NCBI GenBank assembly: GCA_016212295.1
Contig: JACRGO010000237.1
Coordinates: 215 to 64,214, forward strand
Direction of reading: 5' to 3'
Length of the DNA stretch: 64,000 nucleotides
From: Nitrospinota bacterium
GTDB taxonomy: Bacteria > Nitrospinota > Nitrospinia > JACRGO01
Under the pieces are notes generated by a model, which saw only the letters and a program-made list of their open reading frames with translations, was not told the origin of the DNA and made no database searches. Shown here piece by piece: positions 5,370-47,067 of this stretch (positions are counted from its first letter, which is position 1; every line of letters begins with the position of its first letter). The position numbers were made by a program, and so were the translations under genes.

Positions 5370-5487
5370 TAACTAATAAATAAAACGTTGCTAAAGAAGC
5401 AAAGTTTCATGGGCTGGTAGTGAGGGGGCAGGGGACAGTTGCCAAAATCAATTTATGATTGAGAATTGGGAAGTTGCTGGAGACTGC

Positions 5488-7564: not shown

Positions 7565-8940
7565 AATTCGCTCATGGAAAAGATGTCCTCCGCCATCCTG
7601 ATGGGAAGCCCCATGGAGTGGAAGTTGTAAAACTTTGTTTTTGAGTTGGCCAGGATTATTTGCTCAATATAGTTTCTGTAGCTGAAAAGATTCTGGTGCG
7701 CCGCGGCCTTGCCGCCGAATCTGTCTTTCGCCAAAACCGGTTTTTGAGATTGCATTTGATTTTGATGAAAATCATCCAAGGTAGGTCCTCCGATGGAATT
7801 TTGCCATGTCTTTCCCAAGGCGTTTCCGGACGCATGAAAGCGTTTCATTGAAAAACAGCAGTCCTGTCCGAAGAGGATGATGGGATTGAACCCAAAGCGC
7901 GCCATGAGGTCGAGTCCGACGCACGCCACTGATCCCCCTTCCTGGGTTTCGCCTTTTTGTGAAAATAATTCGGCGTCCCCGCCTAAATGTTTTTTTTGGG
8001 CGGAGGCTATAAAGACCATTTTTTTCCCCTTGTAATTCCTAACCACCTCAGGATTGGAGGCAGGGGTGAAAAGGAGAACGGAATCCTGTCCGAAGCATCC
8101 CTGAAAATGCGCCAAACTATGGCTTTGAGGGTCTATGCTTGCCACGAAGTCCGGGACAATGCCCGTCTCCACTAAAATGGGGAAAGCCGTGTCTGTCGCG
8201 AAAATGCCGGCTTTGCCCCTGAGTAATTCGAGGCAGGGCAGGGCAATGTCCAGTGACGGGCCCGCGCTTGCCAATATGCCTGTTTTCCCCGTAAACCTTC
8301 CGTAAAGCCCGGCCACTCCATCTGACTCCAAGGCCGTAGCGCGATTTTTTTGAAAATTTTTTTCTTCCAGGGCGGAAAATTCAACGCTTGTCCTTTTTTC
8401 CATCCGGACCAATTCGAAAATATTTTCAAAATCCTTGAACTCTCCAGGAATGGAGGAAAGAGAAGGGGGATGGATGAGAAGCTTGCCGTTTTCCTCCCGC
8501 AGGACCTTCAAGGCGAGTTCAAATCCTTTTAGCGCGGCTTCCCTGCTTGTCCCTAATAACATGGAAACGCGGGCATCTGAAAAAATTTTTTCCAGGTCCC
8601 TGCAAGAGCAAGCGGCTTCGAGTATTTCGCCGTTGAACTCCATTACCTGGAGTCTGCCGGATGGGCCGGTCCTGTCCAGGATGGCTTCCACATGATAGCC
8701 AAATCCAAACCCGTATATAAGGATGGAATCCCCTTCGGAAATTTGGGATTTTTCAGCGAATTGTCTCGCTTCCCCAACGGGGTCAAAGGCTGAATGGATT
8801 AATCTGTTCTTGTAGCGCAAGGTCCAATCGCCGGACTTGGTCTTGATGGTCGTGCTGTTTTCCGTTGACCCGCGCCTCAAAAATCCCTTGGCCCCAGGCG
8901 CTTTTTTTTCCAATGATTCTATGTTACCGGCTATTGGCAT
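7552..8940 (-). CDS. Maf/DUF115 (MptE-like) domain protein, putative flagellin or pilin glycosyl/nonulosonate transferase
   Basis: 462 aa. The N-terminal 'LIHSAFDPVGEARQFAE' motif is typical of motility-accessory-factor (Maf) proteins, followed by a central DUF115-like core. Confidence 0.55.
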   Translation of the reverse strand: MPIAGNIESLEKKAPGAKGFLRRGSTENSTTIKTKSGDWTLRYKNRLIHSAFDPVGEARQFAEKSQISEGDSILIYGFGFGYHVEAILDRTGPSGRLQVMEFNGEILEAACSCRDLEKIFSDARVSMLLGTSREAALKGFELALKVLREENGKLLIHPPSLSSIPGEFKDFENIFELVRMEKRTSVEFSALEEKNFQKNRATALESDGVAGLYGRFTGKTGILASAGPSLDIALPCLELLRGKAGIFATDTAFPILVETGIVPDFVASIDPQSHSLAHFQGCFGQDSVLLFTPASNPEVVRNYKGKKMVFIASAQKKHLGGDAELFSQKGETQEGGSVACVGLDLMARFGFNPIILFGQDCCFSMKRFHASGNALGKTWQNSIGGPTLDDFHQNQMQSQKPVLAKDRFGGKAAAHQNLFSYRNYIEQIILANSKTKFYNFHSMGLPIRMAEDIFSMSELCAL

Positions 8941-9301
8941 CTTTACGGAAAAAAATAAAATCGACTTGACAGGAAAGAAATTTGGTATAATACTTTTGTT
9001 ACCTTAACATTTTGGTAAAAAAGAATCAAAATTTGTAGCCGTTCACGGAAATTCCGGGGTTTTGCGTGAATTGAATAATTTCACATCCCCCTGGCCCCCT
9101 TTGCTAAGGGGGAATTAAAAGGGGATGTGCCCATTTACTAAGAGGGAGTTGGCAAAAAACGCTTGCGTCGCATAATTCCCCCCTATCAAGGGGGGGATTA
9201 AGGGGGGTTAACCAACGTAAGTAATGGAGTTAATTTCAATATATGGCGGCGCCCCGTGAACAGTTGCTAAAATTCACAATAGCCCTTTCAGGAGAAAAAT
9301 C

Positions 9302-11323
9302 ATGCATGGAAATAAAAACATGGCTCTGGCTAAAGTCGAAAGAATTCCAAAAAGCCAGGTAGAAAGACGCGGTAAAAAACTTTCCCTTGGTTTCCGCATA
9401 GGTCTTTCCATAGGAATATTCCTGGTCCTGTTTATCATCAATTTCATTTCAGCTTTTTGGGTGATCAAGGAGCAAAAGGACGATGGCGTTATCATCAACC
9501 TTGCCGGAAGGCAGAGGATGCTGACCCAAAAATACGTCAAGGAACTTGCCATTGATCTCATCCCGGAACAAGTGCGGCAGGCGGTCCTTAAATCGGCCAG
9601 GATCGCCACGAGACAGATCCAAGAGGACCGCGCGCTTTACACTAAATCCGTTGTTGGGAAAATGAAAAAAGAGCTGCCGGGATTTTCCGCCAGCCAGAAT
9701 TACCACGAAATTTCAGGCGCGGCGCCCCTTCCCGCGACTTTCGTCCGGGAAGTTTCAGAGGCCATACACGGCTCCGGCCTTTATAGTTACGATCTTTTGA
9801 GCAAATGGAATATCAATCCGAAAAAGGGGCTTCGGGACCCCTTTGAGCAGGAAGCCTTCGAGGAACTCCTCAGGACCGGGACCGGTTCATTCTATCGTTT
9901 CATGGATCACGAGGGCCGGTATGTTTTGCGTTTCGCGACCCCTGACAAGGCTTCGTCCCAGGCCTGCACTGATTGCCATAACAACAGCCCTGAAAGCGCC
10001 AAAAGGGATTTTAAATCAGGTGATCTGATGGGCATTCTCGTGGTCACCATACCGGTAAGCGATGACATCCGCCTTGCCAAGGCCCTTTTCAGCCAAGGAG
10101 CGGATGAGGGCGGCGTGGAGCAGGCCGGCTCCAGCGGCGGCACGGCCAAGGTTTTTGAAATGACCCTTGGCGCCTTGATAAATGGAGGGAAGGCCCCTTT
10201 GGACTTGGCGATGACACTGTTCTCGGACCTGCCGTCCCCGCCCCGCAAGGAGATTGAGGACGCCTTGAAAAATGTTGACAAACTCTGGAAGCAGATGGTT
10301 TTGGACGCGGGAGAATTGCGGCGGGCGGAGGTCAACACTCTGCCCTATCTTAAGGCGTTTCAATCCATCCGTGAGGTCAATTTAAAGGCATTGGATGAGA
10401 TGAACCTCGCCGTGGACGCCTTGCAAAAAGAATCCGACCGGAAGGTTTTTCTCCTGAAAACCACCCAGACCACGCTTCTGGTCCTCTCGGTCCTCGTTTT
10501 CCTGTTCATTCTTTCTTATGTCTTCAGGGGAATAGTGAAGCCTTTAAATAATATTGTCAATTCCCTCAGGGAGAGCATGGAAAACGTTTCCGACGCCTCC
10601 CTGGATATCAGCCAGAACAGCCAGGAAACGGCCGAAGGGGCCTCAAGGCAGGCCGCTGCCTTGCAAGAGAGTTCCGCTTCCCTTGAAGAGATTGCCGCCA
10701 TGGCGAAGGAGAATTCCGGCAACGCCGGAAAGGCGGACAAGTTGGCCGCTGAGACAATGGAGGCCGCAAGGGACGGCGAGGGGGCCATGAACAGAATGAT
10801 CGAGGCCATCCAGGCGGTCCGTGAGTCAGGCGGGAAGACATCGAAAATAATTAATGTCATCAATGAAATCGCCTTTCAGACCAATCTTTTGGCCTTGAAT
10901 GCCGCGGTGGAGGCAGCCAGGGCCGGGGAAGCCGGAAAGGGATTCGCCGTGGTGGCGGAAGAGGTCAGGAACCTGGCCTCCAGATGCGCTGCCGCGGCAA
11001 GGGAGACAAGCCAAACCGTGGAGGACTCGCTTAAAAAGACCGAGACAGGCGCGCTGATTTCGGCGGAGGTGGCAAAGGCATTGGGAGAGATCAGCGGCCA
11101 CGCCAAAAAAGTGAATGAATTTGTGGGCACGATCGCCGAGGCTTCCAAGGAGCAGGCGTCCGGGATAAGCGATATAAACAAAGCGGTTTCCGAGATGGAC
11201 CAAGTTACACAGCAAGCCGCGGCTGGTTCAGAGAGATTGGCCCAGTCAGCCCTTGACCTGAAAAACCAGGCAAGCATCCTGGCCGGGGCCATTGCGGAAT
11301 TGGACCATCTTGTTCATGGATAG
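9302..11323 (+). CDS. methyl-accepting chemotaxis protein with periplasmic heme-c (CxxCH) sensor domain
   Basis: 673 aa. It has an N-terminal TM helix, a PilJ/NIT-like '[13 protein letters not shown]' segment, a 'CTDCH' c-type heme-binding motif in the periplasmic part, a second TM helix, a HAMP domain and the MCP signalling domain ('[32 protein letters not shown]'). Confidence 0.85.
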
Positions 11324-11434
11324 GGATCAGGAAAACCAAGTGGTATCGGCTCGCGCTAATATTTGTCCATAGCGCTGCCATGAAACGTTTTACTTTTTGC
11401 CGCCTTTTTGAAATTTCAATATTTTTGGCTAGGT

Positions 11435-11908
11435 TTAGTATTCCTCGCCCCTTTCCTTGGCTGCGCCCACAGGCTCATGGAATTCTTCCCCGGCCTCTTC
11501 CCCCGCCTCCTCTACTTCCTGGCTGTAGAGGGTCTTTATTTTCGCCTCGTATTCTTCCTGGATTTTTTCCATCTCCTCCTGGAGTTTCAGAACGTCTCCG
11601 TGGAGTCTTTTGCCTTCCGCGAAAATTCCTTTAACGGTATCTTTTCCCATAATGTCTACTGATGGGTCCTGCTCCCTTAATGTGTAGACCTCGTTTCCAA
11701 GCCGCATCATAACCGCGTCCATTTCCTTTTTCATGGAATGGAGTCTTACCTGCATTCTGGCCAATTTGGCCTTCTCCTCCGCCTTCAAGGTGATCATGGA
11801 GGCCAGTGATTTAATTTTCATGTAGCCCTCGTCAAGATTTTTTTGTAGATTTTTCCACATAATACCACCTCCTTTATTCTTTTTGCTTCTTGTAAATAAT
11901 ATAATCAA
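11435..11908 (-). CDS. hypothetical coiled-coil protein
   Basis: 157 aa, charged and helical, with an acidic C-terminus. No recognisable catalytic motif. Confidence 0.4.
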   Translation of the reverse strand: MIILFTRSKKNKGGGIMWKNLQKNLDEGYMKIKSLASMITLKAEEKAKLARMQVRLHSMKKEMDAVMMRLGNEVYTLREQDPSVDIMGKDTVKGIFAEGKRLHGDVLKLQEEMEKIQEEYEAKIKTLYSQEVEEAGEEAGEEFHEPVGAAKERGEEY

Positions 11909-12968: not shown

Positions 12969-13000
12969 CTAAAAATAAAGTACAAGAAGGGTGCCAAAAA

Positions 13001-13208
13001 CTAGCCAAAAATATTTGAAATTTTCAAAAAAGGCGCAATGTTTTTTCACGGCCGGAGATACTTACTCGCCTATTCCTAAAATTTATCTCTAATTTTGTCA
13101 TAAAACGTTTCACTTTTTGCCGCCTTTTTGAAATTTCAAATATTTTTGGCTCATTGCCGAAATGAAATGTGCGAGATAAATTCTCAGAATAGGCGAGTAA
13201 GTATCTAA
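13001..13208. repeat. composite intergenic repeat (mosaic of modules shared with 11383-11430 and 32124-32170)
   Basis: Modules 'ctagccaaaaatatttgaaatt', 'gatacttactcgcctattc' and 'aaacgtttcactttttgccgcctttttgaaatttcaaatatttttggct' recur at 11383-11430 and 32124-32170. The modules also appear as inverted copies within the element. Confidence 0.6.
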
Positions 13209-23493: not shown

Positions 23494-24738
23494 GTGAAAA
23501 TGGCGTTAATCGTGCAAAAATACGGCGGCAGTTCGGTTGCCGACCCGGAAAAAATCAAGAACGTGGCCCAAAGGGTCATAAAGACCAAACAAGCTGGAAA
23601 CGACGTTGTTGTGGTGGTCTCCGCAATGGGAAAGACGACTGACAAGCTCATCGAACTGGCAAAGCAGATCACCCCTCTTCCCTCGGACCGGGAAATGGAC
23701 CGGCTCCTGGCAACAGGCGAGCACCAGTCCATAGCGCTTTTGAGCATGGCCATCCATCATTTTAACGAGAAGGCCATCTCCCTTTCCGGCGCTCAGATAG
23801 GACTAATAACCGACACGGCCCATACCAAGGCCAAGATAAAGGAGATCAAGGGCATCGAGCTTATCAAGGGCTATTGCAAAGAGGGAAACATAGTGGTTGT
23901 GGCCGGTTTCCAGGGAGTGACGGAAACCCAGGCCGTTGCGACCCTTGGAAGAGGCGGTTCCGACAGCACGGCGGTTGCCCTTGCGGCGGTCCTGAAGGCG
24001 GACGAGTGCGAAATTTATTCGGACGTTGACGGCATATACAGCGCCGACCCTAGGGTAGTGCCCAAGGCGCGAAAGTGGAATTATATAGGATATGACGAAA
24101 TGCTCTCAATGGCCAAACTGGGGTCCAAGGTGCTGTATCTGAGGTCCGTGGCCCTGGCAAAGAGATATAACGTGGCAATACACTCCAGGTCGACCTTTAC
24201 TCAAGGCGAAGGGACCAGGGTGATGGCGGAAAACAGAATCAAGGAGGAGGGAAAAATGGAGGAGGCGCTTGTAAGAGGAGTGACCCATGACCGCAACGTG
24301 GCCAAGATGACCATAGTCGGCATACCGGACAGGCCGGGCATAGCCGCCAGGGTCTTTGAGACCGTGGCGGAGAAAAACGTAAACCTCAACCTGGTGATCC
24401 AGAGCATCAGCGGGTCAAAGGAGGTCACCGACATATCCTTCACCTTTCCCAGGACCGATCTGCCGAAGATCGTGGACCCAATGGAAAAACTGGTCAAGGA
24501 GCTTGGCGGCCAGGGGCTGATTTACGACAGCGATTACGCGGCTGTTTCCGTTGTGGGGCTTGGGATTGTCGACACCCCCGGGGTCTCGGCCAGGATGTTC
24601 CGCTGTCTGGCCAACCTTGGCGTCAATATAGCCATGATCGGGACGTCGGACCTGACCATAACCTGCATCATCAAGGAAAACGAAGTGGAAAAAACCGCCA
24701 GGGCCCTGCACTCCGAGTTCGGTTTGGATTCGGATTAA
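23494..24738 (+). CDS. lysC: aspartate kinase
   Basis: 414 aa. The N-terminal 'IVQKYGGSSV' kinase motif is followed by two ACT domains. Confidence 0.9.
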   Translation: MKMALIVQKYGGSSVADPEKIKNVAQRVIKTKQAGNDVVVVVSAMGKTTDKLIELAKQITPLPSDREMDRLLATGEHQSIALLSMAIHHFNEKAISLSGAQIGLITDTAHTKAKIKEIKGIELIKGYCKEGNIVVVAGFQGVTETQAVATLGRGGSDSTAVALAAVLKADECEIYSDVDGIYSADPRVVPKARKWNYIGYDEMLSMAKLGSKVLYLRSVALAKRYNVAIHSRSTFTQGEGTRVMAENRIKEEGKMEEALVRGVTHDRNVAKMTIVGIPDRPGIAARVFETVAEKNVNLNLVIQSISGSKEVTDISFTFPRTDLPKIVDPMEKLVKELGGQGLIYDSDYAAVSVVGLGIVDTPGVSARMFRCLANLGVNIAMIGTSDLTITCIIKENEVEKTARALHSEFGLDSD

Positions 24739-24916
24739 GGGACTTGGAATTTAACAATAAACCAGGACACGAAGAGAAAAGATTCATTTCTTTCCGCGAG
24801 GAGTGATTCCCTGTAGTCATTAAGTTTTCCTTCGTGATCTTTGCGCCTTTGTGTGAGACCATATTTTTAATGGGTCTTATTCGTGTGTTTCGTGAATTTC
24901 GTGTTTAAGGATTTTA

Positions 24917-25187
24917 AATATCTGGGGTATGCACTTAACTTGAGTAGGTGCCATATATTGTGGGTGACGATGAAAAATATCGGACTTTATCCGAACTCTG
25001 ATTTTCATGGGCGTAAAGCGCATTTTAAACCCCTCAAAGCAGCAACTGGTTGTTTTTTTCTGCGAAACCCAAGAATAAAGCATGTAAATTTAAAAAAAAT
25101 TCAATGAAACCTGCGTGGAAGCTTTAGAATAAGAAACACCACATATTGTGTTTACTCAAATCAAGTGCATACCCCAGTTAAATATTT
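24917..25187. mobile_element. MITE-like element with roughly 50-bp imperfect terminal inverted repeats
   Basis: The left arm 'aaatatctggggtatgcacttaacttgagta...' (24917-24968) is the reverse complement of the right arm '...tactcaaatcaagtgcataccccagttaaatattt' (25139-25187) at about 80 % identity. There is no coding capacity. Confidence 0.6.
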
Positions 25188-25559
25188 TGAAATGAAATAA
25201 CTTTTTCTCTCGTTCCCAGGACTCGCTATGATAAAAGGCTTTGGACGGAAGTTTTTCAAAGATCTAAAATGTTGCGAATTTTTGTATTTTACCTTCCCTG
25301 GTTCTCAATAACTTGACGACCTGAACTTATCGCCCTTCTGCGGGCTTTAAAGAATTGAGCAGCGAACATCCTACCAATATCGTTCAAGCCCTGTAAAGGC
25401 GATACAATGAAGGGCAGAGAGCTTTCCCCTTTATATGGCATATTAGTATTTAGAAAAATATAATGATAATAAGCAGATATGCCAATAATCATTCGTGGGT
25501 ATTTGCGTGTATTGACCAAACCAAAACTTTGTGCTAGCATTTTCTAACTGTCTAATAAC

Positions 25560-26200
25560 TTGGAGGAGAGTACTCACATGTCCAAGAAAGATATTCGCAA
25601 GTTTTGCGATAATTACAAGAGGCTTGAAAATAACGGGACATATCGATGGAAGATTCTCGACGAGACGCTACTTGGAATATGTGACGCATACCCTTCCCAT
25701 ACGTCTGCTGACGAAGTCTTTTCTAAGGTCGCCCTCATAAATCGCAGCTATCGCGCTAACCTACACTTCACAGGTAAAGATACTGAGGAAAAAATTGCGA
25801 AGGCATTTGTGAAAAAGGGCCTCGACAAAGTGCTTGCCCCCTAAATAGCATAACTGCATTAACAGCCGAAAGCCTGCCCACGTTGGTAAGAGCACATGGC
25901 AGTGTTGTCAGTATTGTGAAAGATGTCACAAGTCGGATTCACAACTCCTTCGCATCAAAGTATCTTCACTTTCATTTTCCGCGCGTCGTTCCCATATTTG
26001 ATAAATTCGCTTACAATGAATCATGGCGACTGGCTCCAGTGCCGAAAAACGAGTGGCAAAGGTGGAGCAATTTAATAAACTATAATTACGGAACTCATTG
26101 TACATCTGTAGTCGCCTTACTCACTGAGCTAAAGGCTAATGGGGTCAATTCGCCGAACATCAAATTGATAGATATACTGCTCTATGAAGGGATTGGCTAA
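25560..26200 (+). CDS. hypothetical protein(s) in AT-rich islet, two ORFs possibly one frameshifted gene
   Basis: ORFs 25560..25844 (94 aa) and 25883..26200 (105 aa, TTG start) are in different frames. The second frame stays open upstream across the junction, which is compatible with a single roughly 210-aa product broken by a frameshift. No recognisable family. Confidence 0.3.
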
Positions 26201-26360
26201 CCAGTTGACCCTTCGGTTCCTCCGCACTGTTTCGCTTCGTCGCCGAAGGTGGCTTGCGAACCAGGCGTTAGAAACAGGCCGCCAGCCGGGCTGTCAAGCC
26301 TGCGGCTTGACGCCCGCTTGTCGGCGGCTCAACGCCGCATTAAGTGTTTTGGAGCCGTCA
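26184..26360 (+). other. GC-rich, hairpin-dense leader element upstream of the DUF3800-like gene
   Basis: About 65 % GC in a roughly 35 % GC context. Nested stems include ccttcgg...ccgaagg and gtcaagcc-tgc-ggcttgac. The ORF-track translation here reads as nonsense. Confidence 0.4.
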
Positions 26361-27269
26361 ATGAATCAAGTTATTTTTGTTATGGACGAATCGGGGGCAA
26401 AGGGCTACTCCGACAACATTGAAAGCACGCCAGGTGAGCTTGGTGTAATGGCTGGCTATCTCATTCCAATCGACTGTTTGAGTTTGGTTAAAAGTGAGTT
26501 AGATGCAATTCGATCAAATTTTTTTTCAGAAGGAAAAATTCACATTACAGACTTGCTCCCGCAGCAGGAAGAATTACGAAAAAACATATTTGATTACTTC
26601 CTCCAAAGGAAAATATATTGGGTTTACGAAGCCGCCTATGTCCAAGGTTATTTTGAAAATGCCGATTTTCTTAATCAGCTAAACAAGAAAGCCCATGACT
26701 CAAGACGATCAAATATACAAGTGTCATGGAAGGAAACAAAAGAGCTTCTTCATTCCGAGCTATTTCAAGGAGCCTTCGGGAAGGCTTTAGCATTTTGCCT
26801 AGATTACGTAGGTAGACCATTCGAGCTCAGAGTCATTACCGACCGAACGGATAACTCAATCATTAAAAAATTTCAGAGCGAAGCCGACGCCCTCCTATCT
26901 GTGGGAAAAGAAAAAATCCACGAAACTACGGGCTTCAATAAAAAAACGAAGCAGATTGTAAGGGGAAGCATTGCAACAAAGGTTTCTGCTGACACAGATG
27001 CAATCGGAGATTTTTCTGGCATTACATATTCCATTGCTTGCGAAGACTCTTCTCTTACCCTTGCCGCCGATGTGCTAGTAAACAGCGCCCATTATCACCT
27101 TAAATTACTGCAATCAGAGAGTACTGGAGTTGCTCTCAATGTTGCATCCTCAATCTCTAATCACCAACTGAGTAGCTTGGTGTACGGGGCATGGGACAAT
27201 ACGGAAGGAAATTATTTTGCTGATGCCATATTTATGCACCCCACGCAAAAGAGCAGAGACAACACCTAA
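26361..27269 (+). CDS. DUF3800-like protein
   Basis: A likely true start ATG at 26361 has GGAG 10 nt upstream. The N-terminus 'MNQVIFVMDESGAKGY' matches the hallmark 'iYiDESG' motif of DUF3800 proteins. The gene is AT-rich. Confidence 0.5.
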   Translation: MNQVIFVMDESGAKGYSDNIESTPGELGVMAGYLIPIDCLSLVKSELDAIRSNFFSEGKIHITDLLPQQEELRKNIFDYFLQRKIYWVYEAAYVQGYFENADFLNQLNKKAHDSRRSNIQVSWKETKELLHSELFQGAFGKALAFCLDYVGRPFELRVITDRTDNSIIKKFQSEADALLSVGKEKIHETTGFNKKTKQIVRGSIATKVSADTDAIGDFSGITYSIACEDSSLTLAADVLVNSAHYHLKLLQSESTGVALNVASSISNHQLSSLVYGAWDNTEGNYFADAIFMHPTQKSRDNT

Positions 27270-27849
27270 CCTTACATTCAAGAGGGACAGGCCAGAAGCG
27301 GCCTGCCCCTCAATTTAACGTTAGGCATACGCTCTACCTATGGTACGAAGCGCGCTATAATTGCTTCATTAGTTTTGAATGGAGTCAGATCATGAACACA
27401 CAACTCTTATACATAAGGACGATATTCCTACATATTCTTTTGGGTCCTTCATTGCACGCGGCGGCGACATCTTGGACGGCTGGAATCTCCTTCTCAGAGA
27501 CGGCCCCAAGAAGGTTCACGGCGGGCTTGTCATTGTTCAAAGCGATACGCCGCATTTCATTCTTGACCTCCTCGTAGGCATCCACGCTGCAAACGACTCA
27601 CAGCAGACTGGGTCGGATTCATCGTTCAACGCCGTGAAAGCAGTGACGAGCCAGGGGCCACCGGCCCTCTCCGCGTCGACCCTTAGGAAAAAGAGGTGGC
27701 TACAGTTTTGGAAATAACCATGCCGGGCGCAATGGCATGCGGTCAAATGACGGAATGGTAAAGGGGTCAGAGGTTTGCAAGATCACATTATTTTGCCTCG
27801 TTGCCGAAACGCACACAATGTGTTAATCTCTTAATTTTGGAGGAGAGAA

Positions 27850-28128
27850 ATGAAAGCTAAATTAACTAAAGAAGAACAAGAAATATTGGGCAGTTTTGAA
27901 AAAGGAGAGTGGGTCCCGGTCAAGGACCTTTCAAAAAGAAAAGCCGAGCTAATGAGGTATGCAAGAAACACGTTAAAAAAAGACAAAAGACTAAACATAA
28001 GAATTTCCGAAAGAGACTTGACTGAATTGCGGAAAAAGGCGGTAAGCGAGGGATTGCCTTATCAGACATATGTTTCCAGTATAATTCATAAATTTGTCAG
28101 CGGCAGGCTGGTAGAGGCAAAAAATTAA
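27850..28128 (+). CDS. ribbon-helix-helix antitoxin (BrnA/CopG-like), orphan
   Basis: 92 aa. The 'KRLNIRISERDLTELRKKAVSEGLPYQTYVSSIIHKFV' segment is typical of BrnA-type antitoxins. No cognate BrnT-like toxin ORF is recognisable nearby. Confidence 0.65.
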   Translation: MKAKLTKEEQEILGSFEKGEWVPVKDLSKRKAELMRYARNTLKKDKRLNIRISERDLTELRKKAVSEGLPYQTYVSSIIHKFVSGRLVEAKN

Positions 28129-28340
28129 ACCGCCAACAAATCGCTCAACACCGGTGCCCATTACGCTCCGCTTCATTCGCACGGGTTAGCCAATCAGTTA
28201 TTTTCTGCCGCCCACTTTGGGGCTTAAATCTTTTTATTCCAGTTCCGGGGGCTGACGCCCCCGGCTATACGCTTTCGGCCCTCCGGGCCTAAAAAACATG
28301 CTGGAACAGCCTCACTGACTTATGGGTCAATAGGCATTTT

Positions 28341-28556
28341 CTAAACAAGTCTTTTTAAATCTTCAATAGAAAGATCAATTTTTTTTAGGATATTGTGCAG
28401 TGTCCCTTTTTTAAGCTCCTTATGGTTTGGGACCACAACCGAGATATTTTTTTCGAGGTTGTGAAGAAAAATATGGCTTCCTCTTTGGTGGTCCACCGTG
28501 TACCCTATTCTGTGTAGAGCTTTAACCACTTGCCTCCCGGAAAAGGTTTTGCTCAA
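28341..28556 (-). CDS. hicA: HicA-family mRNA interferase toxin
   Basis: 71 aa. The '[24 protein letters not shown]...[14 protein letters not shown]' segment matches the HicA/YcfA fold signature. Confidence 0.85.
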
Positions 28557-28768
28557 ATCGTTACCTCGATTTCGCTGACGCTGACTCCCGGCCTTGTTTT
28601 TATTTCATTAAGCTTTTCAAGTCCCTCAAGATAACACAATATTGCTTCCTTGGCATTTTCAAGCGCCTGCTCAGTGGTTTCACCTTGGGTAAAGCATCCA
28701 TCAAGGGCAGGAACCGAAACCGTAAAACCTCCTTCGACTGCGCTTTCCAAAACAACGCTGAATTTCAT
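28553..28768 (-). CDS. hicB: HicB-family antitoxin (UPF0150-type, short form)
   Basis: It starts at MKFSVV (the second Met of the ORF). The '[30 protein letters not shown]' segment is the HicB N-domain signature. It overlaps hicA by 4 nt. Confidence 0.8.
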
Positions 28769-29457
28769 CCGGCAAACCCTCCTTTTTCCCATTTCGTTTT
28801 TGCATTCGTGAAAATATTATTCCCAATTTCAGGGAAAGTCAATAGGAAATTTGCGGTAACACTTTAGCTGTTACTCTCGCTCCCAGTGTCCTCCCTGGGA
28901 GCGTCCGAGCTAAGATGCTTTTCACCTCAACTTTTTAAAAAATTATAATCATAACAATTTGTCTCTGCATTGCAAAATAGTCATGACAATTTGTCATTTG
29001 AATAACAATTTGTTATGATTTTTCCATGAAAAAGAGAGTTTGTGAAAGACATATCATTATGGGACAAAATAGAGTATCTGAATTACGACTCCACCAAGGA
29101 CAGGAAAATCTTTTTGGAGGAAAGATAAGTTTAAAAATTGGAAAAATAAGGTCAAGGGTATATACGATATTTATTTTCACAATAGACTGCATATCGATTC
29201 CGTCCAACTCGTTCTCAATTTGAGAAAAAACCTCCAATACGGGATAGCCAATGCCTTCCCGTTCCCGTTTTTTTAAACTCCCTTTCCTGCTAAACCGGCC
29301 AGGGGCCGGGACCCAAAAGGGCTTCCGCCATGATGCCCATAAAATGTTTTAGCCGCGAAAAAAGGATATCTTGCGAACACAGGGTCTAACAGATGACGCG
29401 GATTGACACGAATTTCCGAACGTAATAATATCAATATCTTGAACGCCAAATTTCACC

Positions 29458-30873
29458 GTGATTCCATCATGGATTTTTGGTTTTAACCCTTCAGCCCTTA
29501 GCCCTTTGCCTTTCGCCTTCAGCCCTTCGCCTGGAAAAGCCTTCCTTTTCTTGGCTTTGATTTTTGGTACCGCCTTTTGTCTGATAACCCCTCCATTTCA
29601 GGCTGTTGACGAGGAATTCCATTTCTTTCGCGCTTACCAGTTGTCCGAAGGGGCGGTTTTGTCCGAGGTGGTTGAGGGCAAGGCCGGACACAGGCTTCCC
29701 AAAAGTATTGAGGACTCCATCTCCTTAACCAAAAATTTACAGCGCCACCCGGACAAAAAATACGGCATTGATACGGCCTTGGCCGAGTTTCATATACCGC
29801 TCAATGAAAAAGACAAGAATTTTGTACCCTTCCCTAACTCAGCGGTCTACAGTCCGGTCCCATATCTCCCGCAAGCAATTGGGATTTTCATTGGAAGATT
29901 TTTCCAGTTGCCGCCCGTTTTTTTGGTCTTTCCGGGCCGTTTTTTAAACCTGCTTGCATGGACTTTGCTGGTATATAACGCCATAAAGGCGGCACCTGTT
30001 TTAAAATGGTTCTTCTTCGCGCTTTCGCTCATGCCAATGACGATCTTCACCGCCGCTTCCTTGTCCGCTGACGCGGCAACGATAGGATTGGCTTTCCTTC
30101 TGACCGCCACGGTCCTGAATTTAGTGTTCGTGAAAAAAACTATCAGCGCGCCTGAAATGGCCAGGCTGCTTATTTTAACCGCGCTCCTGTCGCTGTCCAA
30201 GCAAATTTACGTCACCCTGGCTTTAATGGTCTTCATTGTTCCAAGCGAGAAATTCAAATCAAAAAAAACTTATTTCCTTTTCATGGCCGGGCTGCTGATT
30301 TTAAATCTGGCCGTGAACATCGCGTGGACTTTTCAGGTGAAGGGCTATCTGAATTATGAGAACGGAGCGGCCGGGGGAGAGCAAATACGTTTTATTCTTC
30401 AAAATATTTTCAGTTATCTTTGGATTGTTTCATGCACGTTTTTAAACGAACTTCGTTTTTATCTGGTTTCCCTGGTAGGCATATTAGGGTGGTACGACAC
30501 TCATTTCCCCAGTTGGTTTTACTTCTCGTTCCTGCTTATACTGTTGCTGTCCCTGCTTTTTGAAAACAGCGGCGATATTTATTTTAACGCCCGGCAAAAA
30601 ATCATATTGATTTTAGTTCCCTGCTCCTGCCTCCTGCTGAACTACACGGCTATTTATGTGACCTTTAATCCAGTGGGCAGCCAGGGAATAACGGGCATGC
30701 AGGGCAGGTACTTCATCCCGTTGGTTCCCATGTTGTCCCTGGCGGCTGTTTCAAAAAGGCCCTTGTTTTCCGGTAAACTAACAACCGCCTTTCATGTGGC
30801 GCTGTTGATTCTGTCTCCGCTCTGGCTGGCCTTCACTTGCTTTGTTTTGGTCCAGAGATTTTATATAATCTAA
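29458..30873 (+). CDS. polytopic membrane protein (DUF2142-like)
   Basis: 471 aa with at least 10 predicted TM helices. A periplasmic loop with 'DEEFHFFRAYQL' resembles the DUF2142/GT-C-like family. Confidence 0.55.
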   Translation: MIPSWIFGFNPSALSPLPFAFSPSPGKAFLFLALIFGTAFCLITPPFQAVDEEFHFFRAYQLSEGAVLSEVVEGKAGHRLPKSIEDSISLTKNLQRHPDKKYGIDTALAEFHIPLNEKDKNFVPFPNSAVYSPVPYLPQAIGIFIGRFFQLPPVFLVFPGRFLNLLAWTLLVYNAIKAAPVLKWFFFALSLMPMTIFTAASLSADAATIGLAFLLTATVLNLVFVKKTISAPEMARLLILTALLSLSKQIYVTLALMVFIVPSEKFKSKKTYFLFMAGLLILNLAVNIAWTFQVKGYLNYENGAAGGEQIRFILQNIFSYLWIVSCTFLNELRFYLVSLVGILGWYDTHFPSWFYFSFLLILLLSLLFENSGDIYFNARQKIILILVPCSCLLLNYTAIYVTFNPVGSQGITGMQGRYFIPLVPMLSLAAVSKRPLFSGKLTTAFHVALLILSPLWLAFTCFVLVQRFYII

Positions 30874-30949: not shown

Positions 30950-31942
30950 ATGAAAACGCCGCAACTAAAAATTTTCCACTGCTTTCTTCTGGCTCTTTTA
31001 CTTTTTGCTTGCGCCACTACGTCAGCTCAAAAAGATGCTGCCGTGAAGCCAGACCCGGCAAAGGAACTGTTTCTTGCCGGCAGAACGCTCTTCCAGGAAG
31101 GAAAGCCAAAGGAGGCGCTCGTAAAATTTGAAGAGTCCCTGAAAATTTGCGAAACGGACAGCATCAAGTCCTGCATGGCGGACAATCTCTACCTTATGGG
31201 ATTGTCGCATGCGACTTTGGCGGACCCGGAACAGGCGCCGGCTTTCCTTCAAAGGGCAGAGGGACTATATAAGGAATCGGGAAATGAAGCGGCGCTTGCG
31301 GCGGCGCTGAACGCCTTGGGGAAAATATACGTGGACAGGAATGAGTTTGCCATTGCGCTGCAATATTTCAACCAGTCCCTTGAAATAGACAACAGGATCA
31401 ACAATTCCTCAGGGGCCGCCGGCACATACAATAACATCGGAAAAATATATTACAAGAGAGGGGACTACGCCAAGGCATTGGATTATTATAACAAGGCCCT
31501 GGATTTCTTTGTTTCCACCGGCAATGCCGGCCGCTCCAAGGTGGTCCTGCTCAATATACGCATGGCTGAAAAAGAGATGCTGGAAAGGGAGGGGAATAAA
31601 GAGGCCGGCGCCAAGGAAGGGCCGTCATTGGACAAGGAAGAGTCCGTTGCGAAGCCTCTGGAAGCCGGGCGACAGGAAGATCAAGTTTCAGAAGTTCCAA
31701 CGAACGTGGAAAAAAAAGAAAACATCCAGCACGTTGAAATTACCATCCTCGCCAATTTATTGAATTTATACCAAGCCCCTTCAGCGGGGTCCATGGTAGT
31801 AGCCAGGGTTTTAAAGGGGGGGGCATACAAAACCCTCGATTATGTCCATGATGAAAAGTCAAGAGAATCCTTCTTCAGGATTCAGTTAAAAAACGGCAAG
31901 ACAGGCTGGATCCGCGAGCGGGAAAACAAAGGAGGAAATTAG
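30950..31942 (+). CDS. TPR-repeat lipoprotein with C-terminal SH3b-like domain
   Basis: It has a signal peptide plus lipobox ('LLLFACATTSA'), several TPR units and a C-terminal 'KNGKTGWIRE' SH3b-like segment. Confidence 0.65.
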   Translation: MKTPQLKIFHCFLLALLLFACATTSAQKDAAVKPDPAKELFLAGRTLFQEGKPKEALVKFEESLKICETDSIKSCMADNLYLMGLSHATLADPEQAPAFLQRAEGLYKESGNEAALAAALNALGKIYVDRNEFAIALQYFNQSLEIDNRINNSSGAAGTYNNIGKIYYKRGDYAKALDYYNKALDFFVSTGNAGRSKVVLLNIRMAEKEMLEREGNKEAGAKEGPSLDKEESVAKPLEAGRQEDQVSEVPTNVEKKENIQHVEITILANLLNLYQAPSAGSMVVARVLKGGAYKTLDYVHDEKSRESFFRIQLKNGKTGWIRERENKGGN

Positions 31943-32181
31943 GCGAAGGGCTGAAGGCAAAGGGCTAAGGGCCGATCCACTAATAATTCATATGAACGTT
32001 AATTTTCACACTGTGTTGAAGCAAGGCTAATATTTCCTGGTCCCTGACACCTGTGAACTATTACCAATCCACGATTTCAGAATGTGCAAGAAAAACCGCC
32101 GGCGATATGTGGCATTATAAAACCTAGCCAAAAATATTTGAAATTCTCAGAATAGGCGAGTAAGTATCTAAGGCTTCATGA

Positions 32182-33748: not shown

Positions 33749-36700
33749 CTACAGGAGGGTTTTGTATATCTCTTCGGTTTTTGGAGAGGGGACGTCGCCC
33801 AGTGACGAAAAAAGGATTCGGCGGCATTGCTTATAAAAGGATATCCCCAAGGCTGGATTCCCCGCGCTCCGGCAGCATACCATGATCCTTTGGTAAAATT
33901 CCTCAAGGGCAGGGTCCGTATCCAGTATCCCTCGATAACAGTCAATGGCCTTGTCGAACTCTTCCCCTCGCTCAAGGTAATTTCCCGCCTTGGACGCCAT
34001 GTGGACAAATCTGTTTTTGAGCCTTTCTCTATAGGCGATCAACCATGCCTTTTCACTGTCTCCCGCCAGATACCTGCCTTTATACAGCTCGAAAACCTTT
34101 CGAGCCAGGGAGGACGCGAGTTTTATATCATTACCATCGGAACTAACGCCCTCTTTCCCCTCGCATCTTTTCATGAATGCTTCCATCTCTTCGTGCAGTT
34201 TGCCAAAGGCCCATATATCCACCCAACAATATCTTCTATTAATGGCTATGGCGCCTCCTTGCCGCTGTATAGTTTTATCGTTTCCTATGAGCTTGCGCAG
34301 CCTGTGCAATGCCGCCTCGAAGGACTGGTAAGCCAGGTCGCCGTCGGCATCCGGCCAGAGGACATCGGCCAATTGCTCGAAATTCACATTCGCGCCGCCA
34401 AGGGTGATCAGCGCCTTGAGCAGTTCCAGCGGTTTCTGCTGCACCTTCCCTGAAAACTCAATCGGTTTGCCGTCCTTTATGATCCTGAATCCGCCCAAGG
34501 TATATATCTTTATGGGATAGGGCCAACTTTCGGACGACCTAGTATTCGCAGGGGGCGTTAAGTTCCGCCTCCTGATGAGGCCCAGCACGTACTCCGTTTC
34601 GATGCCTTGTTCAAGGGCCTTGGCGCAGAAAAGTGACATCATCTCCGGGCGCCAACGCGAGAAGTTCACGTAGTTGTGGCGGGCGCCGATGGCGAATGCC
34701 AGACGAAGTTCGCTCACGCCTTGCGCTTCATCTCCCTGTTCAAGGGCAAACCACGCCTTAAAAACATGGCATAGAAACTCAACATGAGTCAGCCCGCGCA
34801 TCAGAGACAAGGCAATAGCCAAATCCTGCTCCGCCTCCTTGTAACGCTTCATGTCGAACAACGTGACGCCGCGCTCGATCCGGCACAATGCCACGGTAAA
34901 GGGACACGCGGTATCCTCGCTGAAACTTACCGCTTGATTGCCATGTTCGATGGAAAGCGTAAAATCGCCTTGATACCAGGCCACCAAGGCTGCCATGTAG
35001 TGATAAAGGCTCCTGTCCAATGTGCGGACGGAATTAAGACGCGCGATTCTGTTCAGGAAATCCTTGGCCGCTGCAAGATCGCCTTGAGAAATTTCGCTAT
35101 AGATGCCCTGGCCGAAAAGGAAGAAATCCAACAGGTGCACGCCCGTTTCCTCGCCAAGGGCCATGCCATGAGCGATGGAGGAAAGACAGGTATTGTGATC
35201 GGCTACAAGCCAGGCATACATGGCTTTTATGCCATACCACCCCTGCATCGCCAGAGGATCCGTGCCGGGTTTTTCGCTTGCCTGGCGCAAGGCGTCCACG
35301 ATGAGCGCGCCCTTCGCGAAATCCCCCATAATATAACGCCAGGTTGTTTCCGAGCGAGATGCGTAGGGAAAAGTCGGCGTCGCCTAGCACGATGCGATTC
35401 AGACGCTCCGCCCACATTGGCAGATCAGGATGAAGGGGTTGCCGCCAAAGCAAGGCGTTGAACATGCCTGACGCCACCCGCGCCTCAATATCGGACGACG
35501 GAAAGGCAGGATGCTTCCGCGCAATGGTTTCCAACTCGTCAATCCACGCGCCCATCGGCCTGAAGTCGTTCCATGCAAAGACAAAAGTGTCCATGACGGC
35601 CGCCCACGCAAGAAACAAACCGGATACATCCTCTTCTTCCTTGAACATCGGGCAGGCCTTTTCGAAATGTCCTCCGGCCTCGACGGGGTTATAGGCCATC
35701 CGGCATATTCCAAGCCAATAAAGGAGCCAGGGGGATGCTTCTTTCAGTTCGCCCGGAATATTTTCTATCCACTCCTCAAGACTCTTGCTTCTGCCCTGCG
35801 ATGCCAACGCTGGAGCAAGGCTTACCGTCAGGCGCATGGCGTTGCCCCAGTCATGGGCATCCATATAAAGGCCAACCGCCTCGTCCATTTGCCCCCTTAT
35901 CTCCATGAGTAAAGCGGCCCTTTGCCGTAGGATGGAGATTTCCAGTCGCGTGAATGTCTCGCGGGAACGGGCCAGCAGGAACTCCCTGAAGAGAGGATGA
36001 TACTGGTATCCGTCCATGTACAATTTGGTGAAATAATTTTTACGGCTCAGGCTTTCCAGGATTTTTCCGGCGGAGTCGATCTCCGTGAGTTTTTCCGCAG
36101 TTTCCGGGTCAATTTTATTTAAAAAGACCGTTTTGAGAAGGACTTCCTGGACCACTGTATCTGTCCTGTCAAAAATCTCGCTGGCGAAATACTCGAATAC
36201 CTCTCGCTGTTTTTTTTTGGGGACAGGCGTCATTTCGCCTGAGGGAGAGCTTTCCATCATCAGCAGGAGCCCGGCCGCCCATCCATCCGTTCGCTCGTGC
36301 AACTTCTTCACGGAGTCGCCGGGCAAGTCCTTCCTCTCTTTTACCTTTAAAAACTCTTTTGACTCCTCCAGGGAGAATTTTATTTCAGCCCACCCCAGGG
36401 AACTGATTTTATTGTTTGCCCGCAGACGCGCGAATTGCGGCGGCGGTTCCTGGCGGCTCAATATGATAACCTTGACCCATTCAGGAATAAGGTCCAGGCC
36501 GCCGCTCATCATCTCCTGAAAAGCAGGACCAGGGACGTCCTGGTAGTTGTCGAGGACTATGGTGAATGATTTTGAATCGCGTTTTTTCGCGGCGCGGGGA
36601 CGGCCTTTGCCCGTGGCAGCCAAATCCGCCGGCAATAGCCTATGGAAAAGTTTTTCAAAATAGCGCCTTGTAAAGGATGGGATGGCCTGGAAATATTCGG

Positions 36701-45437: not shown

Positions 45438-46055
45438 ATGTTCGCGCCGCCATTAGGCTTAAAGAATATGAACCGAATTTATCTATCAATATTAATAATA
45501 TGCTTCCTCCTTGGCACGTGTACACTTATAGCATTTGTCAAGGCTGGAGAGTCTATATCTGGGAATTTGTATCCAGAATTAATAGGCTTTTGTTTAGATG
45601 GAATATTCTTTGTAATTCTTTTTACTGTTTATGAGGGGCGAAGATTTAAAGTAGAATCAACAAAACAAAAGATTAAATTAAAGAAGAGTTTGCGAGATTT
45701 ACTCGCAATAATACTGCAATGGTCACAACCTATTAACAGCAAAATTCCTTTTAAAGAGATCATTTTAAATCCCGATAACCTCAAAGCAATTCAAAAGGAA
45801 TTAGAGTCAACAAGACGACTTGATGGAGTGCAGGCAGATTTTCTCAGAATACATGCTTTAGCAAGGATTCCTTCTATCCAAGCCGCAATTCCAGTATCTG
45901 CTACGATTGATGGAAGACATTTACAGTTATGGGACTTAATTTTAAACAATCTTCGGGCAATTGCTGAATCTACTAATGACGAAAATGCTTATGAAGCACT
46001 GTTAGATTTTATTAACTTTGTAATCAAATTTGATGAAGCTCAAGTGTCTGCCTAA
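45438..46055 (+). CDS. hypothetical membrane-anchored protein
   Basis: 205 aa. Two N-terminal TM helices are followed by a helical soluble domain. It is AT-rich and has no family match by eye. Confidence 0.35.
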   Translation: MFAPPLGLKNMNRIYLSILIICFLLGTCTLIAFVKAGESISGNLYPELIGFCLDGIFFVILFTVYEGRRFKVESTKQKIKLKKSLRDLLAIILQWSQPINSKIPFKEIILNPDNLKAIQKELESTRRLDGVQADFLRIHALARIPSIQAAIPVSATIDGRHLQLWDLILNNLRAIAESTNDENAYEALLDFINFVIKFDEAQVSA

Positions 46056-46212
46056 CAAAGAAACAGTTGCAGGAGTCAGACATTGATCTGGAACAAAAAT
46101 GGGCTTGCCTAACAACCGCCTCCACGGCAGACGCTTGACTGTCATGCGCCTTGCAAAGTTCCGCAAGCCTTACGCCAGCCTGCGCTTGTGAGGCGAGCGT
46201 TAGATTTCAAGG

Positions 46213-47067
46213 ATGCCAATGGCTATTCACTGGTCAGAATCCGAAGTCGAGGCAGCAGTTGAAGACTACTTCAACATGCTCCGCCAGGAGTTGACCGGTC
46301 GCAAATACAACAAGACCGAGCATCGCCGGGCATTAATGGAACATCTGAACAATCGGTCAGAAGGTTCGGTTGAACTGAAGCATCAAAATATCAGCGCCGT
46401 TCTGATCGAGATGGGTATTCCATACATTGACGGATACAAGCCACGTTCAAACTACCAGCGCACACTACTGCCCGCAGCGGTGTCTGATTTCCTCGCCAAT
46501 CACCCCGAGTTTCACGCGCTGTTCCAAGAGGACTCCGAGGTCGCGCCATCCATCCCATCGGTTGCGGATTTTCTCGCGGCGATGGAAGCTCCGCCAAGGC
46601 CGGAAAACAAGGGCAGCTCAACGATCGCGGAGACTCAAGCTATCTACAATCCCGCCGGTGTGAACTACCTGGAACGGGAGGCGCAAAATCATTCACTAGG
46701 AGACGCCGGGGAACAATTCGTCATCAATTTTGAGCGGGCCAGGTTAATCCACGCCGGGAAGGAATACCTCGCGGATCAAATTGAGCAAATATCAGTCTCG
46801 GTCGGCCCTTCCGCTGGGTTTGATATCCGGTCGTTTGAAGAAAACGGAACAGACCGCTTTATCGAGGCAAAAACCACGAAATACGGCAAGAGCACGCCAT
46901 TCTTCGTTACTCCCAACGAGTTGGATTTCTCACGGGAGAATGCAACCCGGTACTTTCTATACCGTGTCTTCAAGTTCCGCGCGGAACCACGCTTGTTCAC
47001 TTTGCATGGCTACTTGCAGGATCAGTGCATACTCCAGCCGTCGCAGTACTTGGCGAAGCCAGCGTGA
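46213..47067 (+). CDS. COG3183-N-terminal-domain plus DUF3883 (restriction-endonuclease-like) protein
   Basis: The N-terminus 'EAAVEDYFNMLRQELTGRKYNKTEHRRALMEHLNNRSEGSVELKHQNISAVLIEMGIPYIDGYKPRSNYQ' matches the non-catalytic N-domain of HNH-type predicted restriction enzymes. The C-terminal half 'GDAGEQFVINFE...GFDIRSFEENGTDRFIEAKTT...FFVTPNE...YFLYRVF' fits DUF3883. Confidence 0.55.
   Translation: MPMAIHWSESEVEAAVEDYFNMLRQELTGRKYNKTEHRRALMEHLNNRSEGSVELKHQNISAVLIEMGIPYIDGYKPRSNYQRTLLPAAVSDFLANHPEFHALFQEDSEVAPSIPSVADFLAAMEAPPRPENKGSSTIAETQAIYNPAGVNYLEREAQNHSLGDAGEQFVINFERARLIHAGKEYLADQIEQISVSVGPSAGFDIRSFEENGTDRFIEAKTTKYGKSTPFFVTPNELDFSRENATRYFLYRVFKFRAEPRLFTLHGYLQDQCILQPSQYLAKPA

Follow-up and report, generated by a model that had tools for sequence, protein, structure and literature searches.

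Does the short AT-rich islet that lies between lysC and the gene for a DUF2142 membrane protein in a Nitrospinota genome encode a single functional module, or separate elements? The islet (~24.74-29.46 kb) was analysed within a 64,000-nt stretch of contig JACRGO010000237.1 (assembly GCA_016212295.1), hereafter called the window, and its central gene encodes a 302-aa DUF3800-like protein. A first-pass annotation of this DNA had united that gene with two unknown small open reading frames (ORFs) and a GC-rich, hairpin-dense leader upstream of it as a candidate undescribed module. The results described below point instead to an islet that is probably a small decayed patch of mobile DNA, consisting of a miniature inverted-repeat transposable element (MITE) derived from an IS1595-family insertion sequence, integron gene cassettes, an orphan ribbon-helix-helix (RHH) gene and a hicBA pair; the cargo of one cassette would be a lone nuclease. 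At least two integron gene cassettes lie in the islet, for which a crude search of the window found no integrase, and the islet is a remnant resembling the attC-site clusters that lack an integron-integrase (CALIN), at best a degenerate CALIN. The features on which this reading is based are as follows.

26340..27320, plus strand: one 981-bp integron gene cassette, the inferred mobile unit, with boundaries from comparison with the homolog loci L192, L071 and L004
26362..27269, plus strand: gene for the 302-aa RNase H-fold, DUF3800-like protein (HZA01_17030), with candidate catalytic residues D9, E10, D161 and D237
27264..27326, plus strand: canonical integron attC site, 63 nt, the best R''/R' hairpin in the window
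26195..26345, plus strand: GC-rich 'leader', 151 nt, read here as the degenerate attC of the upstream cassette
25578..26200, plus strand: HI_0787_N-family (PF27257) gene, 207 aa, one C missing, reconstructed from merged frames, homologs and a split tblastn match

Both strands of the window were scanned for RYYYAAC...GTTRRRY pairs 50-150 nt apart, with pairing forced at AAC/GTT. The top hit, with 0 mismatches, was 27264-27326, which reads ACCTAAC-CTTAC-ATTCAAGAGGGACAGGCC...GGCCTGCCCCTCAAT-TTAAC-GTTAGGC and is composed of R'' (ACCTAAC), a spacer (CTTAC), L'' (ATTCAAGAGGGAC), L' (CCCCTCAAT) and R' (GTTAGGC). The 302-aa gene ends in this site, its TAA stop codon (27267-27269) overlapping R'', and the site is located directly 3' of that ORF in the same orientation. 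Nine attCs aligned too raggedly in MAFFT to build a covariance model from them, and the site was instead scored with position-weight matrices that were anchored at each end and trained only on attCs from other loci. It reached 36.4 bits on the plus strand versus 13.3 bits on the minus strand, and exceeded the next position in the window by 12 bits. In the single-stranded DNA fold, the bottom strand was more stable (-20.0 kcal/mol, z -7.5) than the top strand (-14.8 kcal/mol, z -4.8), with a 3-nt bulge and single unpaired bases; a better-folding bottom strand is the asymmetry expected of attC sites. In addition, the L'' box TTCAAGAGGGAC matches the L'' boxes of independent attCs, and the hairpin is not followed by a T-run.

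Sites of the same type were observed beside the closest homologs of the 302-aa gene, on unrelated contigs. In L004, a 122-nt attC starts from ACCTAAC at the stop codon of the homolog; in L071 and L192, ACCTAAC or ATCTAAC together with a TTCGAG.GGGAC box is present at the stop codon, where the contigs end; and in L068, L069 and L070, a 91-nt attC is located 77 nt downstream of the homolog, with one more site in L068. In four contexts (L004, L071, L192 and L068), the sites are thus found at or just after stop codons or just before start codons. The left boundary of the mobile unit was defined by comparison with L192, which reads ...CTAC GTTAGGT GTTTTGGAGCCATCAATG after a canonical attC where the window reads ...GCCGC ATTAAGT GTTTTGGAGCCGTCAATG (TTAAGTGTTTTGGAGCCGTCAATG in the window versus TTAGGTGTTTTGGAGCCATCAATG in L192 at the crossover edge). 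The two sequences are identical at 22/24 nt from the TT that follows the crossover G, whereas the sequences before it are unrelated, and the same was seen for L071. Identity that starts at the crossover TT reads as the signature of cassette exchange. Because sequence is shared only from the G|TT crossover, the cassette corresponds to 26340-27320 (981 bp), running from the TT of the upstream R' to the G of its own R' and containing, besides the ORF and the attC, 22 nt of 5' leader in which a GGAG ribosome-binding site is present. The R''/R' pair, the hairpin asymmetry, the 3' position and the crossover-limited homology of an integron gene cassette were all found here, and there is little doubt about the cassette anatomy of the RNase H-like gene. 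An integron integrase could move this cassette by recombining the folded bottom strand of 27264-27326, and its attC should allow IntI-mediated excision and capture.

The unit shares with the integron cassettes and CALIN described by Cury et al. (2016; PMC4889954) a promoter-less-looking single ORF followed by an imperfect RYYYAAC...GTTRRRY palindrome, a more stably folding bottom strand with bulged bases, the lack of an adjacent integrase, and homologous cassettes elsewhere that share sequence only between the crossover points; integron cassettes rarely carry promoters (PMC4889954). It differs in having one canonical site next to a degenerate one (ATT for GTT, 151 nt), in its host, a Nitrospinae metagenome-assembled genome (MAG), and in being interleaved with a MITE and reverse-oriented toxin-antitoxin genes. 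A CALIN is defined by two or more attC sites on the same strand, no further than 4 kb apart and without an integrase (PMC4889954); the islet has one canonical attC, the degenerate site at 26195-26345 (10-16 bits) and a candidate at 28131-28192, after the RHH gene, that was rejected as it does not fold (z +0.8). Of these, a single attC looks live and at least one looks dead. A complete integron would have intI and attI beside the array; the flanks here are lysC and the DUF2142 gene.

Outside the islet, a candidate at 34853-34951 was rejected as a chance match inside a 526-aa ORF. A second attC-like site with zero mismatches (46107-46205, 99 nt) has a DNA fold z-score of only -1.8 and is located between two ORFs: one of 205 aa, which has no Pfam match and has its stop codon in GCCTAAC (46050-46056), and one with a NOV_C domain (46213-47067), which begins 8 nt past GTTAGAT. 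Another lone cassette may lie here (45438-47067), ~19 kb from the islet.

For the leader, the structural part of the earlier description holds: 26195-26375 has a GC content of 62% and an RNA fold z-score of -3.84, with values ranging from -3.6 to -4.2. Its two ends, however, coincide with attC-type positions. An R''-like GGCTAAC (26195-26201) overlaps the TAA stop codon of the HI_0787_N-family gene, L-box-like sequences (GTCAAGCC/GGCTTGAC) are present inside, and an R'-like ATTAAGT (26339-26345) has an A at the position of the crossover G, exactly after which the similarity of the window to L192 and L071 begins. On the position-weight matrix the 3' half scored 10 bits (approximately rank 12 of 128,000 positions), and as a pair the two ends ranked 4th to 11th; at 10-16 bits overall, the leader is weakly attC-like. 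No relative of the leader was found by blastn in the homolog loci, including L192, which encodes a 90%-identical protein and has a canonical attC where the window has the leader. Nor did the leader have a match to Rfam in the window at E<=1, and the DUF3800-I to -XI, drum and skipping-rope RNAs were found neither in the window (E<=1) nor, at gathering level, in 24 homolog loci. Since GGCTAAC stands at the stop codon as in the attC of P0121, a homolog of the upstream protein, and no relative in the homolog loci and no Rfam match were found, we read the leader as the decayed attC of the HI_0787_N cassette, with the crossover G mutated to A, and not as a conserved riboregulator.

The 'two unknown small ORFs' (25560-25844 and 25883-26200) proved to be parts of one gene split by a frameshift, the merged product of which has 207 aa. 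Frame 1 runs to ...KVLAP* (25844), and the reading is continued in frame 3 by ...PLNSITALT.... The full-length homologs P0121-P0124 (199-218 aa, all with PF27257) align with 96-100% of the merged product at 60-65% identity; at the join their reading is A-P-L, with no gaps in the alignment, and the tblastn match to the window breaks at 25838-25841. As the window has five Cs at 25837-25841 where six would restore the frame, the run lacks one C, a loss that may be genuine and inactivate the gene or may stem from the assembly. On the basis of the identity to these four proteins, each with a precomputed PF27257 match, we infer that the gene belongs to the HI_0787_N family. Pfam, NCBIfam, PHROGs and PADLOC scans of the merged product provided no usable family; the only other clue was a weak DUF6308 match in Pfam (E 0.23). 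The gene of P0121 ends with GGCTAAC, which is the start of a canonical 59-nt attC ending in GTTAGGC, and is flanked by attC sites within a cassette array with eight attC-like hits. The gene in the window is thus a neighbouring cassette, unrelated to and separate from that of the RNase H-like gene.

On the metagenome scaffold that encodes P0121 (L001; ENA ERZ23486252 scaffold_120, 4182-10875), the eight attC-like hits belong to a defence-type cassette array whose same-strand ORFs include an AAA+Mrr_cat ATPase-nuclease and a RelA_SpoT-domain protein.

The separateness of the two genes was also seen in their distributions. Seven HI_0787_N-family queries yielded no tblastn match in any of 62 loci with the RNase H-like gene. 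The neighbours of HI_0787_N homologs were an AAA+Mrr nuclease and a RelA_SpoT protein (L001) or a restriction endonuclease (L003), and none of these homologs was accompanied by an RNase H-like gene. The co-occurrence of the small-ORF homologs with the DUF3800-like gene, on which the module idea depended, was therefore never observed. No other conserved partner emerged for the RNase H-like gene: when the ORFs of ~55 loci were clustered, no neighbour family was common to more than six loci, and among 126 neighbours compared with Pfam and PADLOC, no Pfam family appeared more than three times. These results indicate that the RNase H-like gene is almost certainly independent of the HI_0787_N-family gene upstream.

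GenBank HZA01_17030, a 'hypothetical protein' of a Nitrospinae bacterium MAG, has the same sequence (100% identity) as the 302-aa product of 26362-27269. The N-terminal 'VMDESG' motif that had been pointed out in this product is present as residues 7-12. The accompanying DUF3800 assignment stands at the level of the superfamily and the fold, but not for the Pfam model: the window protein had no match to DUF3800 (PF12686) even at E<=10, whereas 15 of 65 relatives matched it weakly (best E 6.2e-5), with no other Pfam family recurring comparably, and the single significant match in the viral structure library BFVD was a 'DUF3800 domain-containing protein' (E 1.6e-6, template modelling score 0.47/0.57). 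PADLOC, NCBIfam and PHROGs returned nothing for the protein, no known defence model matched it, and searches of Protein Data Bank sequences, including one with the family profile, gave nothing relevant. The protein had 143 close homologs, all of those with a source name being 'hypothetical protein', and the profile search retrieved 465 cluster representatives at E<=1e-3. The family (~465 clusters at 50% identity) is spread over Proteobacteria, Bacteroidota, Planctomycetota, Cyanobacteria and Nitrospinota in a patchy distribution.

Across 65 aligned members, with identities as low as 34%, D9, E10, S11, K14, G15, E21, K59, H61, R73, D161 and D237 are invariant; D9-E10-S11-G12 is invariant or nearly so, and the conserved motifs are DESGAKGY, GKxHITDL, ITDxxD and LTLAADVLxNS. 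This DESGAKGY/LTLAADVLxNS family has no Pfam, NCBIfam, PADLOC or PHROG model. The AlphaFold2 model of the protein (predicted local distance difference test 91.6, predicted template modelling score 0.90) matched RNase HII in Foldseek (E 1.4e-4), whereas Pfam RNase_HII had no match. The core fold of the RNase H-like superfamily was found, and conserved carboxylates occupy the three places expected of it: strand 1, the end of which would carry D9 and E10, the stretch past strand 4, with D161, and the helix that comes next, with D237. The positions of these four invariant carboxylates would fit a metal site of the RNase H type.

DUF3800 proteins are tied to mobile elements and defence loci (PMC10910872, PMC13594972), and their genes are associated with many unrelated structured RNAs (PMC5737381). 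The window protein shares with DUF3800 (PF12686) the D-E-S-G motif at the end of strand 1, the RNase H-like fold, the mobile and defence contexts and the best viral structural match. It differs in lacking a match to the Pfam model, in having no DUF3800-associated RNA motif nearby, and in being a stand-alone protein of 300 aa with the extra motifs GKxHITDL and LTLAADVLxNS and without a TPR fusion. In contrast to the type 2 RNases H (RNase HII, H2A and HIII), it is larger, sporadic and island-borne rather than housekeeping, and has no detectable sequence homology to them. The protein is thus a remote, unannotated branch of DUF3800 and the RNase H-like superfamily, and neither a member of the Pfam family nor, by sequence, an RNase HII homolog.

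With regard to function, the cargo protein would most probably act alone as a metal-dependent nuclease, and we lean towards an active enzyme. Its likely substrate would be foreign nucleic acid, possibly RNA:DNA hybrids or replication intermediates, in a single-gene defence or anti-mobile-element function of the kind lately shown for integron cassettes. A defence role is plausible because of the neighbour contexts and because integron cassettes of previously unknown function encode phage resistance. The neighbours of the RNase H-like homologs include a TIR gene (L004), an operon of the cyclic oligonucleotide-based antiphage signalling system (CBASS; L066), an upstream HEPN cassette (L071), a restriction-modification (R-M) context (L005), CapP-like peptidases, AbiEii and integrases, and on Moellerella plasmids a homolog is found beside bacteriophage exclusion (BREX) genes and RelE. 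Phage defence has been shown for bacteriophage resistance integron cassettes (BRiCs; 10.1101/2024.07.02.601719), which, like the cassette studied here, are small, carry one or two genes of previously unknown function and have homologs in defence islands outside integrons; the BRiC paper names neither nucleases nor RNase H (0 occurrences). A bona fide stand-alone defence system nonetheless seems a doubtful description of the 302-aa protein. Only tentatively, too, can the DESGAKGY/LTLAADVLxNS family of ~300-aa proteins be proposed as an unrecognised single-gene anti-phage or anti-plasmid nuclease, a divergent branch of the DUF3800/RNase H-like proteins that would spread as a cassette and as a passenger of R-M operons.

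In L020, L026 and L050 (Bacteroidales, Bacteroidota and Binatia), the RNase H-like gene (X) is located in or beside Type I R-M operons, as hsdM-hsdS-X-hsdR or X-hsdM-hsdS-hsdR, and in L006 it lies between an N6_N4 methyltransferase and a ResIII helicase gene, with gaps of 14 and 31 nt. This recurrent passenger layout could reflect a functional link in that sub-branch. On an Aeromonas salmonicida chromosome (L009), a JUMPstart RNA element (4994-5031, 51.4 bits) is located ~1 kb upstream of a distant member of the RNase H-like family, in front of a 233-aa ORF without annotation.

Several observations weigh against this reading. The islet has a single canonical attC, which was found with a home-made detector and not with the covariance model of IntegronFinder, and a crude search of the 64-kb window for an integron integrase gave no tyrosine-recombinase motif or tblastn hit. 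As an attC, the leader is atypical, being 151 nt long with a branched fold and with R'' and R' scarcely pairing, and the majority of the distant members of the RNase H-like family are not beside attC sites. Recognisable defence genes are a minority of the neighbours, and the family has no member in the phage collection and few on plasmids. For the nuclease itself, hhalign of the family profile against E. coli RnhB gave a probability of 0.07, that is, no homology to RNase HII; the acidic residues were assigned by secondary-structure position and not by residue-level superposition; and the literature ascribes to DUF3800 an RNase H fold 'with a catalytic rearrangement' (PMC10910872, PMC13594972).

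Four other explanations were compared with the patch of separate cassettes. If the upstream ORF or ORFs, the structured leader and the DUF3800-like gene formed one undescribed multi-gene module, it would be natural that they are close neighbours on one strand with little space between them, that the leader out-folds its shuffles (z -3.84), and that both gene families are found in defence-type islands; yet HI_0787_N-family genes are missing from all 62 loci and stand beside other genes (AAA+Mrr, RelA_SpoT, restriction endonuclease), the upstream gene is frameshifted, the leader is conserved nowhere, and attC-type boundaries, a separate one for each gene, intervene, which makes the module extremely unlikely. 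An equally low estimate applies to a chance palindrome or terminator in a generic genomic island without an integron link. The negative search for an integrase in the window and the presence of just one canonical site are compatible with such a coincidence, as are the false positives of the detector (46107-46205, which folds weakly at z -1.8, and another hit inside an ORF), whereas it leaves unaccounted for a score 12 bits over all other positions on matrices trained elsewhere, an R'' at the stop codon with an L'' box that is conserved in four homologs from unrelated contigs, a similarity that breaks exactly at G|TT, and a hairpin without a T-run. Very unlikely, too, is the view of the leader as a novel structured RNA acting together with the DUF3800-like protein, analogous to the eleven DUF3800-I to -XI motifs and the drum and skipping-rope RNAs. 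DUF3800 genes are strikingly tied to many unrelated structured RNAs (PMC5737381), and the leader is GC-rich in an AT-rich setting and folds at z -3.6 to -4.2; but neither Rfam, in the window or at gathering level in the 24 homolog loci, nor the homolog loci contain a relative, the 90%-identical one has a canonical attC at that position, and both ends of the leader coincide with the R'' and R' positions of an attC.

An explanation of a different kind accepts the cassette but takes its protein to be a factor for nucleic acid processing or maintenance (e.g., for the removal of RNA:DNA hybrids for a mobile element), a toxin-like addiction gene or a non-catalytic binder. It agrees with the missing match to known defence models, with the minority share of defence genes among the neighbours, with the accessory rather than effector role of DUF3800 proteins at CRISPR-Cas12 loci (PMC10910872, PMC13594972), and with the many non-defence functions among integron cassettes. 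Four invariant acidic residues at positions typical of RNase H, the recurrence of the gene in R-M operons and beside CBASS, TIR, HEPN and BREX, and the patchy taxonomic distribution argue in the other direction, and we regard such a role as unlikely, although it deserves more weight than the coincidence or the module. What looked like a new module with a structured leader turns out to be known biology: where genes meet in AT-rich islets, a GC-rich hairpin can be an attC recombination site, and neighbouring small ORFs can be one frameshifted cassette gene. Integron-type cassettes are documented in a Nitrospinae genome. The islet can be resolved neatly into known element types and is an ordinary mosaic of them, in which the unannotated RNase H-like cassette family is the item of moderate interest: a compact family that annotation libraries have not captured, with an intact-looking acidic tetrad, which travels as cassettes and in R-M operons. 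If it were a defence nuclease, a one-gene system would be added to the catalogue, light would be shed on the enigmatic DUF3800 superfamily, and its study could provide a first biochemical handle on the role of DUF3800-type RNase H domains.

The remaining features of the islet and its flanks are as follows.

23494-24738: lysC, with AA_kinase and ACT domains
24922-25177 (24914..25185 with duplications), no strand assigned: MITE derived from an IS1595-family insertion sequence, 256 nt, without an ORF with coding signal
27327..27849, no strand assigned: unexplained 523-bp segment, 50% GC, rising to 57% at 27450-27750
27850..28128, plus strand: ribbon-helix-helix protein, 92 aa, a borderline CopG/BrnA-type antitoxin
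28245..28290, plus strand: Acido-Lenti-1 RNA motif (RF01687), 49.3 bits versus a gathering threshold of 37, E 3.7e-9
28341-28556, minus strand: hicA (HicA_toxin 4.5e-17, 62.3 bits)
28553-28792, minus strand: hicB (HicB_lk_antitox 4.3e-11, 43.5 bits)
29458-30873: DUF2142 membrane-protein gene

The drop in composition downstream of lysC that had been reported is evident, from 55-58% GC in lysC to 35-39% at 24750-25500, and the mean GC content of the islet is 42.8% compared with 49.2% for the remaining window, with GC-rich spikes at 26.2-26.4 kb (62%) and 27.45-27.75 kb (57%). The earlier description of the islet as a small hotspot of mobile, defence-type and toxin-antitoxin genes, with a MITE at its start and an orphan RHH gene and hicBA at its end, likewise agrees with these data.

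The MITE is bounded by an inverted repeat (24919-25180, 44 nt, 77%) and a perfect 8-bp target-site duplication (TTAAATAT) at 24914-24921 and 25178-25185, and has a DNA fold z-score of -5.0. Its terminal 15-mer CTGGGGTATGCACTT is unique to it within the window. In metagenome contigs, the CTGGGGTATGCACTT terminal repeat was found as inverted pairs ~1.0 kb apart (L074, L079, L084, L096, L115 and L130); lone 15-mer matches in that collection are possibly due to chance, and paired matches alone were counted. The ~1.0-kb elements that share these terminal repeats encode DDE_Tnp_IS1595 (4.4e-32) and Zn_ribbon_IS1595, and one contig (L093) carries a 111-nt derivative with CTGGGGTATGCACTT terminal repeats and an 8-bp duplication of its own. 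No coding signal was found in the ORFs inside the window copy. The element therefore has the same terminal inverted repeats as the autonomous IS1595-family elements and the same 8-bp target duplication, lacks a transposase, and does not differ from other MITEs of that family, of which it is an ordinary member; the MITE seen at this place by the first-pass annotation is thus assigned to the IS1595 family.

For the segment 27327-27849, part of which (27440-27720) had been called a GC-rich non-coding relic, the GC-richness was reproduced, and the best coding signal, with host-like codon usage, was seen at 27388-27585 on the minus strand and only there. The segment may hold a minus-strand orphan ORF or pseudogene, or a 112-aa plus-strand ORF. 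No homologs were found for either strand in Pfam, NCBIfam or, by tblastn, plasmids, and the merged minus-strand reading had no homolog among 5.8 billion proteins.

The RHH protein matched CopG_antitoxin (6.1e-6) with 27.3 bits, just under the cut-off of 28, and a PHROG Arc-like repressor (0.005), and no toxin-like ORF was present on either side of its gene. An orphan RHH protein without a toxin partner is therefore confirmed, whereas the BrnA/CopG-type antitoxin call is not, given the score below the cut-off and the lack of an adjacent BrnT-type toxin gene. The Acido-Lenti-1 motif, the sole gathering-level Rfam match in the 64-kb window and, like the canonical attC, absent from the first-pass annotation, is located where the RHH gene and hicA converge, between their 3' ends, and its match is full-length, with two GC-rich hairpins and the conserved CUGACG loop; it occurs here in a Nitrospinae genome, outside the phyla of its name. 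The hicBA pair (28341..28792) recognised earlier is intact, with the antitoxin gene first, a 4-nt overlap and both scores over the 27-bit cut-off.

Beyond hicB, the AT-rich intergenic region towards the DUF2142 gene contains a 37-nt palindrome with three copies of ATAACAATTTGT (28947-29020), which is overlapped by several promoter-like sites and has an operator-like look. An inverted repeat of 32-34 nt, 82-91% complementary (29491-29532 / 31941-31975), surrounds the DUF2142 gene and the next gene, for a TPR protein, its left arm falling within the beginning of the DUF2142 ORF. Another family of short repeats is present at 11356-11436, 12996-13208 and 32119-32174, with 31 nt that are 100% identical between 13178-13208 and 32141-32171 and a 34-nt inverted repeat (13056-13089 / 13173-13206); it probably represents a further MITE-like element with no relation to the IS1595 MITE. 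Finally, a tandem series of at least five 102-nt repeats with 79-85% identity is found at the right edge of the window (63414-63996); the protein repeats that it specifies are probably TPR-like, with 34 residues each.

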